This document shows, one piece after another, positions 10,584 through 38,223 of a stretch of DNA of 64,000 nt. Below the pieces are notes generated by a model. The model was not told the DNA's origin and ran no database searches. It saw nothing but the letters and a program-made list of their open reading frames with translations. A program made the translations under genes and the position numbers. How positions within the stretch are numbered: the first letter of the stretch is position 1; each line of letters begins with the position of its first letter. The stretch spans positions 192 to 64,191 of the forward strand of contig CAYMVO010000005.1 in assembly GCA_964393975.1 (NCBI GenBank). The letters run 5' to 3'. The stretch is from an uncultured Lachnospiraceae bacterium (lineage in GTDB: Bacteria; Bacillota; Clostridia; Christensenellales; UBA1242).

Positions 10584-11654
10584 ATGAGCATTTTGGATAC
10601 AAAGACCAAACAAAAACATTGGTTCAATCGCAATTACCTTTATATTGGCACTATTTTACTTATAGCTATCAATATACTCTTATATAAGTTTTGCGGTAAC
10701 ACTTGGGAAACGTTTGCAGGAGATGTGAATATCCAATGGACAGATTTTGCTAACTTTTCTAATATTTTTAGATCCTTTTTGGACAATTATTCTCATAGTG
10801 GTTGGACACACGTTATTGGGAATATGATATGTCTCGCAGTGGTCGGTATATACCTTGAGCGAAAGTTAGGTAGTGTCAATTTCTTATTACTAGTTGTAGC
10901 AATGTCTTTTATATCGGCTATGTTTGTAACAGGTAGCGATTTAAATATAGACCATCACGGCTTTTCAGGTGTAAACTATTGCTTGTATGCGTATGTTTTA
11001 TTAGATTATATCTTTTATCTTAGACCTAATAAAAGAGATAATCCAAACATAATTCTAGGTGCATTGACTCTTTCCGTTATTTATGTTGCTATGTGTTGCG
11101 GAGACTTTGAGACTTTTACTTTCCTCACTTGGCCGATTGACCTTTTGACAAACGAGGGACACTACACATCGTATTTTTGCGGACTAATTCTTGGACTAAT
11201 TGTACAATTGACTATGTTTTTAAATGATTATAACAATGTTGATGCTTATGGCACGCCAACTTTGAGCAAGAAAACAAAGGCGATATATCTCATTATTTCG
11301 GTGATTTTTATATCATTTATATGCACCGTTCCAGCATATTCCGCGTGGAGATACAACAATTTGGAGTGCAGTATCACTATAGATTGCTCAGTAGATAAAT
11401 ACGACACTGTTCTCATATACAATTATGGCGAATTGTCAAAACAAAGCACATTTTCAGATGAGATAATTTGCTCTAAATGGAAGACTAGAGTAGGACTTAA
11501 TGATGATACAAACGCTATAATTGTAAGCAAATACTATATAGACGACATGGGAAACAAGTTTAACCTTTTACATTTTTCATACGCTCAAAACAGCTTACCT
11601 ATAGCATATCTAAAAAATTACCAAATATATTATGAAATCAGTTTGAAAGCTTAA
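10584..11654 (+). CDS. Rhomboid-family intramembrane serine protease with an extra C-terminal extracytoplasmic domain
   Basis: Track start is 10578 (GTG). ATG 10584 lies 5 nt after AGGAGG. HSGWTHVIGNM and the GFSG serine motif are present. About 120 extra residues follow the last TM segment. Confidence 0.7.
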   Translation: MSILDTKTKQKHWFNRNYLYIGTILLIAINILLYKFCGNTWETFAGDVNIQWTDFANFSNIFRSFLDNYSHSGWTHVIGNMICLAVVGIYLERKLGSVNFLLLVVAMSFISAMFVTGSDLNIDHHGFSGVNYCLYAYVLLDYIFYLRPNKRDNPNIILGALTLSVIYVAMCCGDFETFTFLTWPIDLLTNEGHYTSYFCGLILGLIVQLTMFLNDYNNVDAYGTPTLSKKTKAIYLIISVIFISFICTVPAYSAWRYNNLECSITIDCSVDKYDTVLIYNYGELSKQSTFSDEIICSKWKTRVGLNDDTNAIIVSKYYIDDMGNKFNLLHFSYAQNSLPIAYLKNYQIYYEISLKA

Positions 11655-11720
11655 TTAAAATACAAAAACTACACCACGCAAAAAAAATCCCTCCTTTTAT
11701 GCAAAACACATCATAATAAA

Positions 11721-11772
11721 AACCACTCAGCAATTGAGATACACTCAATCTTTACTGAATGGTTTTTTATTT
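11721..11772 (+). terminator. Intrinsic terminator after the rhomboid gene
   Basis: AACCACTCAG-loop-CTGAATGGTT (9 of 10 bp) followed by TTTTTTATTTT. Confidence 0.55.
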
Positions 11773-11946
11773 TATCATTTAAATTTCTAGTAACCATTTA
11801 TTTAACCATTTTAAATATTCCAACAAAATCTTTCATTGTACATTTAAAACAAATACAACACGATAAATCAACCTCACTTTGCTTGTCATAAAATTAATTT
11901 ACTCTTTTGCTAAATTTGTACTACTCTTATCTCTTTAAATAATTAA

Positions 11947-13764
11947 TTACTTTGCAGTATCACGAATCTTCACAGTACCACTCGTAGTCGTCACAACCAC
12001 CTTTTTTAGCACTTTTCCTTTATTTTCATCAGTATTATCTGTGTAAGTGTTAAGTGCTGGATCCTCGTTGTCGCCTGTAACAATCACTTGATCACTTGTC
12101 AAGTTTAAATAATTACAAGCTACGTCATCTTTCTTCTCGTACTGTATATTAGAAATCCACACATCAGCAGTGCCTGCACCCTTGGTGATTAGCACGGACC
12201 TTTGAAAAGGTAGCGCTATTTCCAAACTCCCACCATTTTCAAAATTAGAATCCGCTAAAATATTTGCAAACCTCACCTTTGAATATGCTCCATCAGTAGT
12301 CTTTAACTTTACAGCGGAACTAATATCGTTAAACACAACATTACCTTTTTTTGTCTCAGCATCTAGCACAGACTCCGCATATTTAGTCATATACTCATCA
12401 CCTTTATCTTCTGTGACAGTGATGTTTCCTCCATCGGTGATAATCTTCGCACTGCTATAGAGCTTTCCTACAGTGACATTGCCACTCTTTGTAGTGATAT
12501 CCGTTGTGTTACTGTCTAGTTTGCCAATATTTACATTACCACTTTCAGTAACCACATTAACGATAGAACCTATTATCTCGTCAATATTCAAAGCAAACGA
12601 CTCACCGCCAATCACACTCAACTCACCCAAAGAACTTTCATTCTTTCTGATCGCATTTAGATTTAACACAGCATTTGGAGAGTCAATCGACACAACGCCA
12701 TACACATTGTTTAGTTTGATATAACTAGCATAACCTTTATATGCAAAAGTAGGTGTTTTACCGGTACTAGTCCATTCAGTACCCAAATCTCCCATAGTAA
12801 TCTTTGAGTAATCACTCTCAACATAGCAACCACCCAAAACCAAACAATTTTCTTGAACTTTTATATTGCCTCTTTGGTTTTTTATGCTCAACTTACCTTT
12901 TACACCGGTAGTAATTTTATCCTTACTAACGCCACTAGGTACATCAAGAGTCAATATTGTATCGGTAATCTTTTTAGAATTTTCCTCATCATCAATCATA
13001 AGTACATTTTTGAGGTTTCCAACATAGACATCGCCACTCTCTGTCTCCAAATCTATATTATTCAACAGCATCTCTTTAATAGTTTGATTACCACTAGTTG
13101 TCTTTACACTCAATGTATTAGTAACAGTAAATGGGTTTACCACATTTTGAGATGAACCAACTCTGTGAACCGCGCTCTCACTAAAAGAAGCATTGAAGTC
13201 TCTACATTCAACAAACACATTTTCAACGTCTCTTAGATGCGTAGGGAAACTTATGTTGATAGTACTATTAGAATAGTTTACAAGACCACTAACCGTATCG
13301 AATACGATATATAAAGTATTGTTCTCCACATAAGGCTTTTTATACTTGAAAACTTGTGATGCTAAATCTTTTGATTCGTCATACCCTTCTATCTTTCTAG
13401 TATCAATAACACCATTAGCTGAAATCTTACCAAAGACTGTCATAACATCATAGGTACCATTGACAACATTGACATCTAAATCAGGCGCAATAATCTTGAT
13501 AGTGTCAAAATCACCTATATAATTAGCGTTATAAGCATCAAGCTTATCACCGCTCAAACCTAACCCGATACTATCAGCTAGTGTACTATCCATATATACT
13601 ACTTGGATATACTCACCCTCTAATGTTTGACTATAACGGAAGTATTTGTACCCGAAGATAGTCACCCCGCCAAACATCATTATACCCATACCAATCACAC
13701 AAATACCTACACCTATAAGTGCTAGCAAAAATGCATACTTAACTATACCTTTTATAATGCTCAT
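11947..13764 (-). CDS. N-terminally anchored protein with repeated (S/G)GN(V/I) beta-strand motifs, DUF4097-like putative adhesin
   Basis: 605 aa with one N-terminal TM segment. Recurrent TESGDVYVGNL / TESGNVNIGKL / TKSGNVTVGKL / TDGGNITVT / KKGNVVFN motifs. Confidence 0.5.
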   Translation of the reverse strand: MSIIKGIVKYAFLLALIGVGICVIGMGIMMFGGVTIFGYKYFRYSQTLEGEYIQVVYMDSTLADSIGLGLSGDKLDAYNANYIGDFDTIKIIAPDLDVNVVNGTYDVMTVFGKISANGVIDTRKIEGYDESKDLASQVFKYKKPYVENNTLYIVFDTVSGLVNYSNSTINISFPTHLRDVENVFVECRDFNASFSESAVHRVGSSQNVVNPFTVTNTLSVKTTSGNQTIKEMLLNNIDLETESGDVYVGNLKNVLMIDDEENSKKITDTILTLDVPSGVSKDKITTGVKGKLSIKNQRGNIKVQENCLVLGGCYVESDYSKITMGDLGTEWTSTGKTPTFAYKGYASYIKLNNVYGVVSIDSPNAVLNLNAIRKNESSLGELSVIGGESFALNIDEIIGSIVNVVTESGNVNIGKLDSNTTDITTKSGNVTVGKLYSSAKIITDGGNITVTEDKGDEYMTKYAESVLDAETKKGNVVFNDISSAVKLKTTDGAYSKVRFANILADSNFENGGSLEIALPFQRSVLITKGAGTADVWISNIQYEKKDDVACNYLNLTSDQVIVTGDNEDPALNTYTDNTDENKGKVLKKVVVTTTSGTVKIRDTAK

Positions 13765-32204: not shown

Positions 32205-32762
32205 TTATTCAGCTATTCTTCTTACCATAACATAGGCAGTCAAGTTTGTTCCAGTCAATGTTAACGTTTCACCCGCTTGCGCTATGCTAATGTAGAACGT
32301 ATCCCCCGCATCCAATCTTAATATCGTTTGCGCAGTGGTTATACCTTCAGTCGTGACTGGTATACGAGTGTTACTCACCAAAGAACCGCCCTCCCAAATA
32401 CCTATGTCAGCTTGTGCGGTTGATGGTCCTACGCCGTATATTATCTCATACACACCGGCATTTGCTACAGTGATATTACCCGAAGAATCTATTGTCACGC
32501 CATTTGCTTCGTTGCTCGCAGTCAAATTGATAGGTATCGCAGTGTCATTGACAGTTTGTGCCACTACTGAGTATCCGTAACCAAACTCAGCCACCCCTGT
32601 CGCACCAGTAGGTCCCGTAGGTCCCGTCGCACCCGTCGCACCCGTCACCCCTGTCGCTCCAGTAGCACCCGTCGCACCCGTCACCCCCGCAAGGCACACT
32701 CTCCTACACTCGTAACCACACGGTTCGCAATACGACCGCCTACAAATATTAAAACACGCCAT
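32205..32762 (-). CDS. Collagen-like (GxT repeat) protein with a Cys-rich N-terminus and a beta-rich C-terminal domain, BclA-like exosporium/spore-surface architecture
   Basis: 185 aa. The N-terminus MACFNICRRSYCEPCGYECRRVC has 7 Cys. About 10 triplets follow (GVT GAT GAT GAT GVT GAT GAT GPT GPT GAT), then roughly 125 aa of globular sequence. Confidence 0.65.
   Translation of the reverse strand: MACFNICRRSYCEPCGYECRRVCLAGVTGATGATGATGVTGATGATGPTGPTGATGVAEFGYGYSVVAQTVNDTAIPINLTASNEANGVTIDSSGNITVANAGVYEIIYGVGPSTAQADIGIWEGGSLVSNTRIPVTTEGITTAQTILRLDAGDTFYISIAQAGETLTLTGTNLTAYVMVRRIAE
32589..32687 (-). repeat. GxT-encoding 9-bp-periodic collagen-like repeat tract
   Basis: On the plus strand, reiterated GTCGCACCC / GTAGGTCCC units. 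Confidence 0.7.
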
Positions 32763-34496: not shown

Positions 34497-34615
34497 TTTA
34501 TACCCTCCTTAAATTCTCTATATAGTATGATTAAACATTCTTTTTCGTTAATTAATGTATTTAAAGTCAATTTTAAAAAATTTAGAATAAACTAGTAAAT
34601 AAGGAGTCTATTTAT

Positions 34616-34762
34616 ATGAAAGATTGTTACGATGAAGCATTACTCGCCACCGCTATTGCGTGCAAATTGCACGACACATATACCAAAGAAGACCTACACT
34701 GTCTAATCAGTTTTATGCGTTTACTCATGAATAACCTTGAATACTTTATCTATAGAAAATAG
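34616..34762 (+). CDS. Candidate 48-aa protein MKDCYDEALLATAIACKLHDTYTKEDLHCLISFMRLLMNNLEYFIYRK
   Basis: Below the ORF-track cutoff. ATG 34616 is preceded by AAGGAG. It ends 48 nt before repeat copy 1. Confidence 0.35.
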   Translation: MKDCYDEALLATAIACKLHDTYTKEDLHCLISFMRLLMNNLEYFIYRK

Positions 34763-34809
34763 CTCACCTTAAAGCCCACTTTTCAATCACCTAATACATA
34801 GCCCAGCCT

Positions 34810-35108
34810 TTAAAAAACACTACCCCACATCATATTGGGTAGATACGAAAAGTGCTATCGCTAAAACCAACGCATATTAAAATTACATTCAGCAATAGGA
34901 TATAAAACACAAATGCAAATGTCAACCACGCTTTAGGGGACGCACCTTCGCGGGATCACCCTACACAAATATACTGTTTGTCATTAAAAAAAATTATACA
35001 AAGTACTTGACCATTTTCTAGTCGACACCAGCGCAAAGACCACTTGCGGTCGAGCGCGATAGCGTTAGTCTATATCCCCGCCCTATATTACAACACCACC
35101 TTTTAAAA
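34810..35108 (-). repeat. Direct repeat copy 1 (299 bp) flanking the AbiE module
   Basis: Collinear with 36910..37209. By eye there is one substitution (34865 A vs 36966 G) and one A-run length difference. Confidence 0.9.
34812..34986 (-). ncRNA. Candidate ~175-nt structured sRNA inside repeat copy 1 (family not recognised)
   Basis: Minus strand has TATAAT (34998..34993), GC-rich stems (TAGGG..CCCTA with inner CGC-GAAGGT-GCG), and a terminal hairpin CTACCC-N11-GGGTAG followed by TGTTTTTT. Confidence 0.3.
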
Positions 35109-35151
35109 CACAATAAAACACACCGCTATGTATCGTTGTACACATCGGTGT
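35109..35151 (-). terminator. Terminator candidate after abiEii
   Basis: Minus strand reads ACACCG-N20-CGGTGT followed by GTTTTATTGTGTTTT. Confidence 0.4.
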
Positions 35152-35251
35152 ATTTAAAAGTATATGTTTTATTTTTTATAGTATATTAAGCTAAACGATA
35201 GCGTTAGACTGACTTACTAAATCAACACCATTTCTTATAAAATATAAAACT

Positions 35252-36151
35252 TTAAAAAATATTAAATTTTATTATTTTTTGAATAATTTTTATCGTCTCT
35301 ATATAAGGCACATTATCGTAGGTTATTAGGCTAGTAATATTTTCATAATCTTGTTTATAAACATCTTTTTTAATTATTTCTTCTAACAATAGACTGATAT
35401 TATATTTTTGATGCGCAGAAGTGCAAAATCTTTTTAACTTTCGCAAATTTCTTATTTCTTTAATGTACATCTTTAAATCATCATTAAAATTAATGCTATT
35501 AAACAATTTATAAACATCATATAGATGTCTAGAATGTAATAAAATATCATTATTTAAATAATAATCACACAAGGCAAAAATTTTATCAACAAAAGTTCTA
35601 GTAATAGATTGAGTTTTAATCTCAAAAGGCTCAACATCCTTGAATGATATCTTATTTAGTAAATTATTCTTTTTCAAATAATCATAAATTATATTTGAAA
35701 CATATTTATTTTCTATCGGATAAGCGTTTATACTAAACACAGTCTCAATGATAACATTTTGCTTTAAACCATTTGACTCATAAAGCGCTGGATACTTAAT
35801 TTCAAATTTATTATAATCCATACCACTCAAAACATCTTTCTCATTTTCCAAAACAAAACCTAAATCTTTAACAATTTTAACGATACTATGATTTATAGAT
35901 TTTATATCCCTTTGAGACAATTTGCTTTCACAAGATAAATCTATATCCTCGGAAAATCGGTTTACCAAACCAAAACATTTTGAAAGTGATGTCCCGCCTT
36001 TAAAAACTATATTTATATTCGCTTTTGCTATCTCATTTAAAATCAAACTAACAAAATAGTCTTTTTCTATGATTGCTTCGCTAATTCCTTTTTCTTTTGA
36101 AATCTTATTTATTAATTGAGAAAATAATTCTTTATCTTGATACAACTTCAT
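35252..36151 (-). CDS. abiEii: AbiEii/AbiGii-family nucleotidyltransferase toxin (DUF1814)
   Basis: 299 aa. The hallmark is FKGGTSLSKCFGLVNRFSEDIDL. 4-nt overlap with the upstream antitoxin gene. Confidence 0.75.
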   Translation of the reverse strand: MKLYQDKELFSQLINKISKEKGISEAIIEKDYFVSLILNEIAKANINIVFKGGTSLSKCFGLVNRFSEDIDLSCESKLSQRDIKSINHSIVKIVKDLGFVLENEKDVLSGMDYNKFEIKYPALYESNGLKQNVIIETVFSINAYPIENKYVSNIIYDYLKKNNLLNKISFKDVEPFEIKTQSITRTFVDKIFALCDYYLNNDILLHSRHLYDVYKLFNSINFNDDLKMYIKEIRNLRKLKRFCTSAHQKYNISLLLEEIIKKDVYKQDYENITSLITYDNVPYIETIKIIQKIIKFNIF

Positions 36152-36753
36152 AGTATCCCCAAAATATATAAATTTTTAATTGTTTTAGATGGATATTCTG
36201 TTATATATCTCATAACTTGTTTTTTATCTACATTATTTAAAAAATATTGACAAATTTTTTCTTTATTAGTTAGTAATATTTCAATTTTTGTAGAGGTAAT
36301 AAACTCCAAAAACTGCAACGTCAAGCAATTCTCTTTATCTATATCAACTCTTGATTTTCTCAAAACGACCTCTTGATTTTCTACCTTTATCCTTCTAACC
36401 CTTGTAGATTCTTTATTCGTCATAATTTCATAAGTGTTTGGTACTTGCATTGTAACCCCGATATAATTCATAAAAGATATACCACAATAAAAACCATATA
36501 CTTTTTCATCATTTTTAATATACTTTTTCTCAATGACTTTAACAGTAGATAATGTGGATCGCCCTAATACAGTCTTAGTAGGAATATAATAAATACCATT
36601 CTCAAATCTTGCGAGGTTTCCCTTATCGATAGATTCTTGAATTAATTGCGATATTCTGACCTTTGATAGTTCACTAAACATAGAACGGATTTCATCTATA
36701 AATATTGGATTATTCATACTATACTTATTTGCTAAACGCGACACTATTTCCAT
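36148..36753 (-). CDS. abiEi: AbiEi-family antitoxin / transcriptional regulator (type IV TA)
   Basis: 201 aa. N-terminal wHTH-like FIDEIRSMFSELSKVRISQLIQESIDKGNLARFENGIYYIP. Paired with AbiEii. Confidence 0.65.
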   Translation of the reverse strand: MEIVSRLANKYSMNNPIFIDEIRSMFSELSKVRISQLIQESIDKGNLARFENGIYYIPTKTVLGRSTLSTVKVIEKKYIKNDEKVYGFYCGISFMNYIGVTMQVPNTYEIMTNKESTRVRRIKVENQEVVLRKSRVDIDKENCLTLQFLEFITSTKIEILLTNKEKICQYFLNNVDKKQVMRYITEYPSKTIKNLYILGIL

Positions 36754-36790
36754 AATTACCTCCTACTATATTTTATACCTTTTTAAATAT

Positions 36791-36819
36791 ATTATACTCA
36801 TTTCAACATTTTTTGTCAA
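36791..36819 (-). promoter_or_regulatory. Consensus sigma-A promoter of the abiE operon
   Basis: Minus strand reads TTGACA (36819..36814), a 17-nt spacer, then TATAAT (36796..36791). Confidence 0.6.
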
Positions 36820-36909
36820 TAGTAATATAGTATTTTCACATTTATTTTTAACATTTGCCATAGATACATTAAAGCAATCAGCGAGCCTCAAAGCACGTCA
36901 TCCAATCTA

Positions 36910-37209
36910 TTAAAAAAACACTACCCCACATCATATTGGGTAGATACGAAAAGTGCTATCGCTAAGACCAACGCATATTAAAATTACATTCAGCAATAGG
37001 ATATAAAACACAAATGCAAATGTCAACCACGCTTTAGGGGACGCACCTTCGCGGGATCACCCTACACAAATATACTGTTTGTCATTAAAAAAAATTATAC
37101 AAAGTACTTGACCATTTTCTAGTCGACACCAGCGCAAAGACCACTTGCGGTCGAGCGCGATAGCGTTAGTCTATATCCCCGCCCTATATTACAACACCAC
37201 CTTTTAAAA
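36910..37209 (-). repeat. Direct repeat copy 2 (300 bp) flanking the AbiE module
   Basis: See copy 1. Confidence 0.9.
36912..37087 (-). ncRNA. Candidate structured sRNA inside repeat copy 2
   Basis: Same elements as copy 1. TATAAT at 37099..37094 and the terminator hairpin at about 36920..36943. Confidence 0.3.
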
Positions 37210-37212
37210 AGA

Positions 37213-37248
37213 ATATAAAAAACAAACCGCTTTGCATTACGCATAGCG
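37213..37248 (-). terminator. Terminator candidate after the 282-aa secreted-protein gene
   Basis: Minus strand reads CGCTATGC-GTAAT-GCAAAGCG (one mismatch) followed by GTTTGTTTTTT. Confidence 0.45.
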
Positions 37249-37331
37249 ATTTGTATAAATGATATATTTAATTAGATATAGCACATCAAACCTTGCGACC
37301 GCAACCGCAACGCAAGTGATTTCTTCACATC

Positions 37332-38180
37332 TTATACAAAGCCAGCATACAGGGTAAAGCTACTAGTCACCTTAGTACTAAAACTATATATTGTACTACA
37401 GTTACTATCAGTGTACCAACCAGTGAATGTATATCCTAATTTGTATGGATCAGCGGGCTTTTCCACTGTACCATTATTATTAAAGAAAGTCTGAGCGATA
37501 ATGGTGCTATTGTTATTTGTAACGAATGTCACTATATGACCATATTCGGGATCGGCGCCAAACGCCTCAGTGAAGATATTAGAGAGGTTACTTATACTCT
37601 TATCGGTAATATTTTTAGACTGTACAGCTTGCACTTCCGCCCTAAAAACGAGGTCGGTAGGAGCACTTATTTCACCATATAGACCGACTGCGCCTTTGTA
37701 TGTTACCGCCCCGCAAAAGGTCGTCGCGTTTGTGGTATTACTAGCGCTATATACAGTAGGTGTTGTCGTCCCATTACTAGTAGTCGCTAGATAATAGTAT
37801 CCATCTGTATGCTTATACCAACTACTAGTACTAATGTTAGTAGTATCAATGCCTTCATAGTTTACTGACAAAAGGAATTTCTTTACATCATCATTCGCTA
37901 AGTTATTTGACTTGAATACAAGTCTCGCTCTAACGTAGCAATCAGAGGCGCCAGTGTTTTGCTTAAACTTTATGCTATTCACCAACGTATCACCTCTAGC
38001 GACATTTGCCATAGAGTCTGTCATACCATCAAAGGTGACATCTAGACTAACCTTTAACACGCTAAGACTAGTCTCTTTGCTCGCCTTAAAACCCGCCCAC
38101 GCAAAAGTGACACCTATAACGGCGATACACACAAAAGCGACTAATAAAACGATAAGACTCTTATTTCTAAATCTTGTCAT
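37332..38180 (-). CDS. Secreted protein with a TasA/camelysin-style (SipW-type) N-terminal signal region and a C-terminal Listeria-Bacteroides (Flg_new) repeat
   Basis: Track start is 38189. ATG 38180 is better spaced from GGAGG. The signal h-region ends in GVTFAWAGFKAS. The C-terminus carries PADPYKLGYTFTGWYTDSN...FTLYAGF. Confidence 0.5.
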   Translation of the reverse strand: MTRFRNKSLIVLLVAFVCIAVIGVTFAWAGFKASKETSLSVLKVSLDVTFDGMTDSMANVARGDTLVNSIKFKQNTGASDCYVRARLVFKSNNLANDDVKKFLLSVNYEGIDTTNISTSSWYKHTDGYYYLATTSNGTTTPTVYSASNTTNATTFCGAVTYKGAVGLYGEISAPTDLVFRAEVQAVQSKNITDKSISNLSNIFTEAFGADPEYGHIVTFVTNNNSTIIAQTFFNNNGTVEKPADPYKLGYTFTGWYTDSNCSTIYSFSTKVTSSFTLYAGFV

Positions 38181-38223
38181 ATACTCCATACCTCCAGTAA
38201 ATACAATAGATACATTTTTACTT

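Follow-up and report, generated by a model that had tools for sequence, protein, structure and literature searches.

The locus described here lies in a stretch of 64,000 nucleotides (nt) from an uncultured Lachnospiraceae bacterium (Christensenellales, UBA1242, in the GTDB taxonomy), taken from contig CAYMVO010000005.1, positions 192 to 64,191; this whole stretch is referred to as the window. At its centre is a two-gene cassette of the AbiE type, abiEi–abiEii, which is bracketed by two copies of a 300-nt non-coding unit. An earlier note on this DNA had reported the two copies as near-identical collinear direct repeats and had interpreted them as the footprint of a recent event, either a Campbell-type insertion or the duplication of a resident element followed by cassette capture. 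The features which make up the locus are as follows:

34616..34762 (+): orf48, a small conserved open reading frame (ORF) of 48 amino acids (aa) that flanks copy A on its outer side and diverges from the gene for cysteine desulfurase, with no Pfam match
34809..35108 (-): copy A of the 300-nt non-coding repeat, flanked by orf48 and by T2, the terminator of abiEii
35119..35152 (-): T2, the abiEii terminator hairpin and T-run (-14.8 kcal/mol, z -2.4)
35252..36151 (-): abiEii, DUF1814 nucleotidyltransferase toxin of 299 aa (Pfam AbiEii PF08843, 3.2e-30; PADLOC AbiEii, 1.2e-74 over its full length)
36148..36753 (-): abiEi, antitoxin/regulator of 201 aa (PADLOC AbiEi, 7.1e-56; Pfam DUF6088 under its cut-off)
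36791..36819 (-): abiE promoter TTGACA-17-TATAAT (12/12 consensus; kept in the related locus L037)
36910..37209 (-): copy B of the 300-nt repeat, with the abiE promoter on one side and T1 of the Flg_new gene on the other
37222..37254 (-): T1, the terminator hairpin of the Flg_new gene (-16.3 kcal/mol, z -4.8)
37332..38189 (-): Flg_new (Listeria-Bacteroides repeat) surface protein gene on the outer flank of copy B (Pfam Flg_new, 5.6e-16)

Repeat finding and alignment confirmed copies A and B as collinear direct repeats, with a start-to-start distance of 2101 nt in place of the 2100 nt given previously. The alignment also upheld the sole substitution claimed inside the unit (A at 34865 against G at 36966) and contained no internal indel. 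The difference in the length of an A-run (A6 against A7) is present as well; however, it lies right at the repeat border, where similarity ends, and can equally be read as a T/A mismatch at the boundary. Identity between the copies was found to be above 99% inside the unit, falling to about 60% past both borders. A 39-mer of the unit has exactly two occurrences in the window, with none expected from shuffled sequences, and an nhmmer search with a profile of the unit detected no third copy in the 64-kb window and, in the comparison loci L001–L037, only those copies that were already known.

Several structural statements of the earlier note were likewise found to hold. On the minus strand each copy begins right after the preceding terminator, copy B about 6 nt past the T-run of T1 and copy A at the end of the T-run of T2. 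Profile matches, the promoter scan and the hairpin agree that only abiEi–abiEii with its own promoter and terminator lies between the copies. No integrase, transposase or recombinase domain was detected with Pfam among the called genes within about 10 kb on each side, and the repeat search reported no terminal inverted repeats at the ends of the unit.

Divergence of the two copies among strains

Conspecific contigs were collected by exact-protein look-ups and belong to one metagenome series (ENA ERZ27279213-234, about 11 samples, and Logan SRR118808xx, 6 samples). For the neighbouring RsmE protein, the best matches among GTDB representatives were 43–52% identical and without synteny, and the contigs of RsmE relatives at 85% end short of the locus. 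All contigs which cross the locus have the order T1, unit, abiE, T2, unit, orf48 (for the B side L006, L007/L017, L009 and L023; for the A side L001/L008 and L003). The remaining conspecific contigs end within the unit, the expected effect of a 300-nt repeat on assembly at k=141. No deletion allele or single-copy site (T1–unit–orf48) was present among the conspecific contigs of the sampled series.

Within a genome, copies A and B differ by one single-nucleotide polymorphism (SNP) in the window, by eight SNPs and a 13-nt indel in L006, by seven SNPs and the same indel in L007 and by three to four SNPs in other samples; across the sampled strains the divergence of A from B reaches 2.7% plus the indel. 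The near-identity of the window copies had been taken as a sign of a recent event, a conclusion which is contradicted by the divergence of the conspecific copies in L006 and L007 and by polymorphisms that are shared between the two positions. The earlier note had itself stated that relatives in which both copies are present but no longer alike would count against its proposal, and L006 and L007 are relatives of this kind.

The distribution of the 13-nt insertion, TTTATTATTATAA, illustrates this sharing. Together with its linked SNPs it was found in copy A only in L006 and L007, in both copies in the samples ending in 224 and 217, and in neither copy in the window and the sample ending in 215. 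About 85 nt separate the insertion from the copy-specific 3' flanks and single 141-mers span both, which ties it to the flank and shows that its placement is not an assembly chimera. Mean SNP distances between genomes were 1.42% for A against A, 1.80% for B against B and 1.72% for A against B, while the flanking DNA of the same strains differs by about 0.3%. Divergence between paralogues is not above that between orthologues, and the SNP distances carry no signal of orthology. Variants shared between positions, with an A–B distance about equal to the A–A and B–B distances, point to one pool of variants, which is the signature of gene conversion.

The favoured reading, to which a probability of about 0.6 is given, is that the near-identical copies are a lineage-specific pair of paralogous non-coding repeats which is fixed as far as sampled and homogenised by recurrent gene conversion, with no recent integration. 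Intrachromosomal gene conversion would repeatedly homogenise copies A and B (concerted evolution), and it would be limited to the 300 nt of the unit by the sequence outside being too diverged to recombine. The confinement of conversion to this recombinable stretch would explain both the sharp borders and the variable divergence within genomes. The pair in the window would then be either the most homogenised one or one partly homogenised by the assembler.

Duplicated rrn or tuf genes are examples of concerted evolution by gene conversion. The repeats of the abiE locus resemble them in that the paralogues exchange variants, polymorphisms are shared between positions, the paralogue distance equals the orthologue distance and the border is sharp. 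Unlike the rrn and tuf cases, the unit is short and non-coding and brackets a defence cassette, and it is not a conserved housekeeping gene. Gene conversion associated with repeats has also been described in Mycobacterium tuberculosis (PMC12046097).

The abiE cassette in other genomes

AbiE systems are reportedly bicistronic operons which act as toxin–antitoxin pairs (Dy et al., 2014; PMC3985639), and AbiE is reported to be among the toxin–antitoxin systems that stabilise an integrative and conjugative element in Streptococcus suis (PMC11062541). The cassette of the window is like AbiE systems of the type IV toxin–antitoxin/abortive infection class in its bicistronic abiEi–abiEii arrangement, in the 4-nt overlap of the two genes (36148-36151), in its own strong promoter and in that both components were matched. 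From its gene content it is an ordinary AbiE system, with predicted toxin–antitoxin activity. It is unlike described AbiE loci in its 300-nt flanking repeats, which are absent from related cassettes.

Relatives of AbiEii were located in other genomes at 73–86% amino-acid identity. At the nucleotide level (blastn) the cassette is 76–78% identical to those of loci L033–L036 and 87% identical to that of L037, with the homology beginning about 95 nt before abiEi and stopping at the stop codon of abiEii. The limits of this homology correspond to window positions 36836-36852 at the promoter end and 35248-35252 at the stop-codon end, so that the unit is excluded. The shared part can be described as a further feature:

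35250..36849 (-): conserved abiE module, spanning the promoter and both genes up to the stop codon of abiEii, and all that this locus has in common with cassettes elsewhere (blastn), GC content 24.7%

No long flanking direct repeats were found at the related abiE loci outside the species. In L033 and L034, abiE is located beside integrase, Bro-N and GmrSD(-HNH) genes in Hadza and other gut metagenomes (990-2183, 11453-12706). In L036, abiE and an upstream gene for a helix-turn-helix domain protein lie between ftsA-ftsZ and spoIIGA-sigE-sigG in a different Clostridia genome (1099-3419, 7155-9410). Because related copies occur in such different contexts, the 1.6-kb module appears to be mobile and to move between very different sites without recognisable ends. 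It also appears to be independent of the repeat, which, to judge from these alignments, is not part of the cassette, since the module occurs without it in other genomes. The GC content of the module, 24.7% against 34.8% for the window, is matched by values of 24–28% for the family in hosts of 30–38% GC. Low GC is thus common to this cassette family everywhere and gives no date for its arrival here.

The closest cassette is that of L037, from sample ERZ27279226. Upstream of it lies a homologue of T1, designated T1' (local alignment score 63, a value that none of 1000 shuffles attained), and T1 is far nearer to T1' (87%) than to T2. Homology to the abiE promoter region is found about 25 nt past T1', with the roughly 330 nt that hold copy B in the window being absent. 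As the next gene begins 50 nt past the abiEii homologue (abiEii'), copy A and T2 are also absent there. This junction was defined from local alignments; a global MAFFT alignment forced T1' onto the unit and was discarded. It should also be noted that two 25-nt direct repeats, GAATAAAAACCC(C/G)ACCTTATA(G/T)AAA, are located just upstream of T1' in L037, at 72-96 and 221-245, 149 nt apart. Among more distant AbiEii relatives (75–78% identity), several have longest contigs of only 1.8–2.4 kb, which hints at repeats or strain variation around cassettes of this family elsewhere as well.

The other side of the locus was also compared. L029, of the nearest lineage, again from sample ERZ27279226 and with a cysteine desulfurase 89% identical to that of the window, carries a DUF6273 gene, a different terminator and then orf48, and has neither the unit nor abiE there. 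In L030–L032, where the cysteine desulfurase is 60% identical, orf48 is kept and the unit is absent. The empty site with a single copy which the earlier note had proposed to look for in relatives was not found; beside orf48 in L029 there is no copy of the unit.

Nature of the 300-nt unit and its surroundings

Stop codons are present throughout all six reading frames of the unit, by which a coding sequence or a pseudogene is ruled out. Rfam 15 gave no match in the whole window at gathering thresholds and none in 34500-37400 at E<=10. No tRNA or tmRNA was detected with ARAGORN, and thus no att site of the tRNA type. The possibility of a large structured RNA was rejected, since the unit folds no better than shuffled sequences on either strand (z -0.44 and -1.34) and the strain variants are not compensatory. 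No target-site duplication was detected, the flanks ATATTC/TAATAG and TTGTG/AAAGGC having no duplication in common. Searches for the unit returned no matches among PLSDB plasmids and INPHARED phages (blastn, distant mode), in IMG/VR (one exact-pattern scan) or in JGI metagenomes (two scans).

Two signals were nevertheless read within each copy of the unit:

34897..34925, copy B 36998-37026 (-): promoter-like site TTGACA-17-TATCCT (10/12 in a consensus scan, consensus match only)
34811..34842, copy B about 36912-36943 (-): terminator-like hairpin CTACCC...GGGTAG with T-run at the 3' end of the unit (sequence reading; fold -8.2 kcal/mol, z -0.95, weak)

With a promoter-like site and a terminator-like hairpin on the minus strand of each copy, it is conceivable that each specifies a small RNA (sRNA) of roughly 85–100 nt from that strand. 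Separately, a 12-nt exact match, CGATAGCGTTAG, was observed between the 5' part of the unit (35058-35072) and the interval between abiEii and T2 (35198-35212) with p about 0.035, and GCTATCGC, its inverse, is found near the 3' end of the unit. This match could have survived from an earlier, incomplete copy or be due to chance. The regions of T1, T2 and the abiE promoter resemble the unit only marginally (p 0.035–0.8), and this resemblance was not used as evidence.

The genes which surround the locus encode housekeeping and surface proteins, namely cysteine desulfurase, the 48-aa ORF, the Flg_new repeat protein, RsmE and leucyl-tRNA synthetase. The product of orf48 is 90% identical in L029 and 56% identical in L030–L032, and its pairing with the desulfurase gene is kept down to 60% desulfurase identity; orf48 may be a real small protein with a functional link to the desulfurase. 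Within the RsmE–orf48 interval a presence/absence polymorphism of ~1 kb was observed at window position ~37330 (L007:2943-4740, also L017-L020), with some strains encoding a 307-aa Flg_new protein and a 299-aa DUF6273 protein upstream of T1 where the window has one Flg_new protein of 285 aa. This interval looks like a variable hot-spot of surface-protein and defence genes. Further away, a gene for a collagen-like (G-X-Y) protein (32205-32762, minus strand) shows a 9-nt tandem periodicity, with repeats at 32583-32689 and a local GC peak of 50–54%. It also varies by strain; compared with L007 it shows 17 differences per 300 nt, and its length is 182 against 185 aa.

Origin and significance of the repeat pair

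With regard to how the pair arose, the units would have been added around an abiE module already located downstream of T1, through local duplication or through two insertions of a terminator-seeking element. The direct junction of T1' and the abiE homologue (abiE') in L037 favours such an addition, and it is considered the most likely origin, at roughly even odds. The flanks of the two copies also bear on this question. On the 5' side they have a weak collinear likeness, AGCGGT(T/G)TGTTTT and a few further matches, with a local alignment p of about 0.003–0.005. In addition, the 3' arm and T-run of T2 resemble those of T1, the two 3' arms reading ATGCAAAGCGGTTTGTTTT and ATACATAGCGGTGTGTTTT. T2 may be a counterpart of T1 that diverged long ago, or the two terminators may simply be alike; if they are paralogues, either the duplication was an old one or a diverged donor supplied T2.

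An orthologous flank from a diverged donor is what would be expected of T2 if the arrangement had arisen by an old Campbell-type event, or by duplication and capture, before the strains diversified, with gene conversion acting later and the L037 lineage losing its units secondarily. The geometry fits this explanation too. It would require two separate and nearly precise losses in L037, however, and no donor carrying the unit together with abiE was found in the searches of plasmid, phage, IMG/VR, JGI and GTDB-representative sequences, so it is regarded as unlikely, though still to be taken seriously. Integrase-less, att-flanked cis-mobilizable elements and Campbell-type integrants have in common with the locus the direct repeats around a small foreign cargo and the lack of a recombinase. 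Typical att cores are far shorter than 300 nt. The locus also differs from such elements in that no single-copy target was found and in that the repeat does not travel with its cargo.

Less credit is given to the unit being a small non-autonomous mobile element which inserts a few bases past intrinsic terminators and which landed independently on both sides of an existing abiE cassette. Both copies do start 6–8 nt past a hairpin and T-run with alike 3' arms, their borders are sharp, and L037 and L029 resemble unoccupied sites. Against this, there are no terminal inverted repeats, target-site duplications or transposase and no third copy in the window or the searched collections, and the residual similarity of the flanks past the border is more like that left by an old duplication; the explanation is accordingly rated improbable. 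Pairs of miniature inverted-repeat transposable elements (MITEs) reportedly flank cargo such as integrons in Acinetobacter as composite elements. The present locus is like such composites in having two short non-coding copies of the same orientation around a cargo module, and unlike them in having no terminal inverted repeats, target-site duplications or dispersed family within the 64-kb window and the loci searched. A bolder proposal, that the unit is an undescribed recombination or mobility module which inserts just 3' of intrinsic terminators, carries an sRNA-like transcription unit and in pairs brackets and mobilises or deletes defence cassettes, is speculative and has little probability.

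It could also be asked whether the near-identity of the copies is exaggerated by assembly, with one consensus path taken through both copies and the real copies differing more. The window appears to be a metagenome-derived contig, most assemblies at k=141 break in the repeat, and both copies are traversed only by assemblies in which they differ. On the other hand, one SNP and the copy-specific flanks were retained in the window, and the A/B pairs of other samples differ by three to four SNPs, which places a pair with one SNP within the natural range. An assembly origin of the near-identity is therefore judged to have a small chance of being correct. The assemblies do contain a clear product of the repeat, namely the 2.2-kb contigs L010–L012, which consist of abiE with partial units at both ends and whose ends overlap by about 135 nt. 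These contigs are a de Bruijn graph product of the chromosomal arrangement, although tools that rely on terminal overlap would call them circular.

The recent Campbell-type integration of the earlier note, by which a circular element with one unit and abiE would have entered a resident unit and left the cassette readily excisable, is very unlikely: the unit–cargo–unit geometry, the single SNP between the window copies, the foreign composition of the cassette and the lack of a recombinase nearby agree with it, but the layout is present in every locus-crossing contig of the sampled strains with diverged copies, neither a single-copy empty site nor a deletion allele was found, none of the cassettes compared in other genomes includes the unit, T1' in L037 directly precedes abiE' without a unit, and the low GC content is intrinsic to the cassette family.

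Several points weigh against the favoured reading, in which a paralogous pair is homogenised by gene conversion. The sequences used for comparison are all short-read metagenome assemblies from one study series, in which mixtures of strains can yield chimeric contigs. In some samples the assembly graph cannot separate two chromosomal copies from a deletion allele plus a circle; this applies to the sample ending in 215, where the 5' halves of both copies are identical. The near-identity in the window may be partly due to assembly collapse, the link between L037 and the window interval is through recognisable terminator homology only, and the search for further copies in this genome covered 64 kb.

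The earlier note had also regarded the module as excisable by homologous recombination. Direct repeats of 300 nt would in principle permit a RecA-mediated deletion, and the pair could thus allow the RecA-dependent loss of abiE; no deletion allele was seen, for which counter-selection against the loss of a toxin–antitoxin module would be a plausible explanation. The locus offers a natural test of whether a toxin–antitoxin defence module resists loss when it lies between recombinogenic repeats.

For other cassettes with flanking repeats, near-identity of the repeats is no clock, because old paralogues can stay nearly identical through gene conversion, and population data are needed before an insertion is called recent. 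Such repeats also break short-read assemblies, and the resulting 2.2-kb abiE contigs could wrongly be taken for excised circles or very small plasmids. Paralogous flanking repeats that evolve in concert represent known genome dynamics in a new place, with the residual novelty being the unexplained 300-nt unit. If this unit were mobile or encoded an sRNA, it would represent a new type of element in a poorly studied lineage of gut Clostridia.

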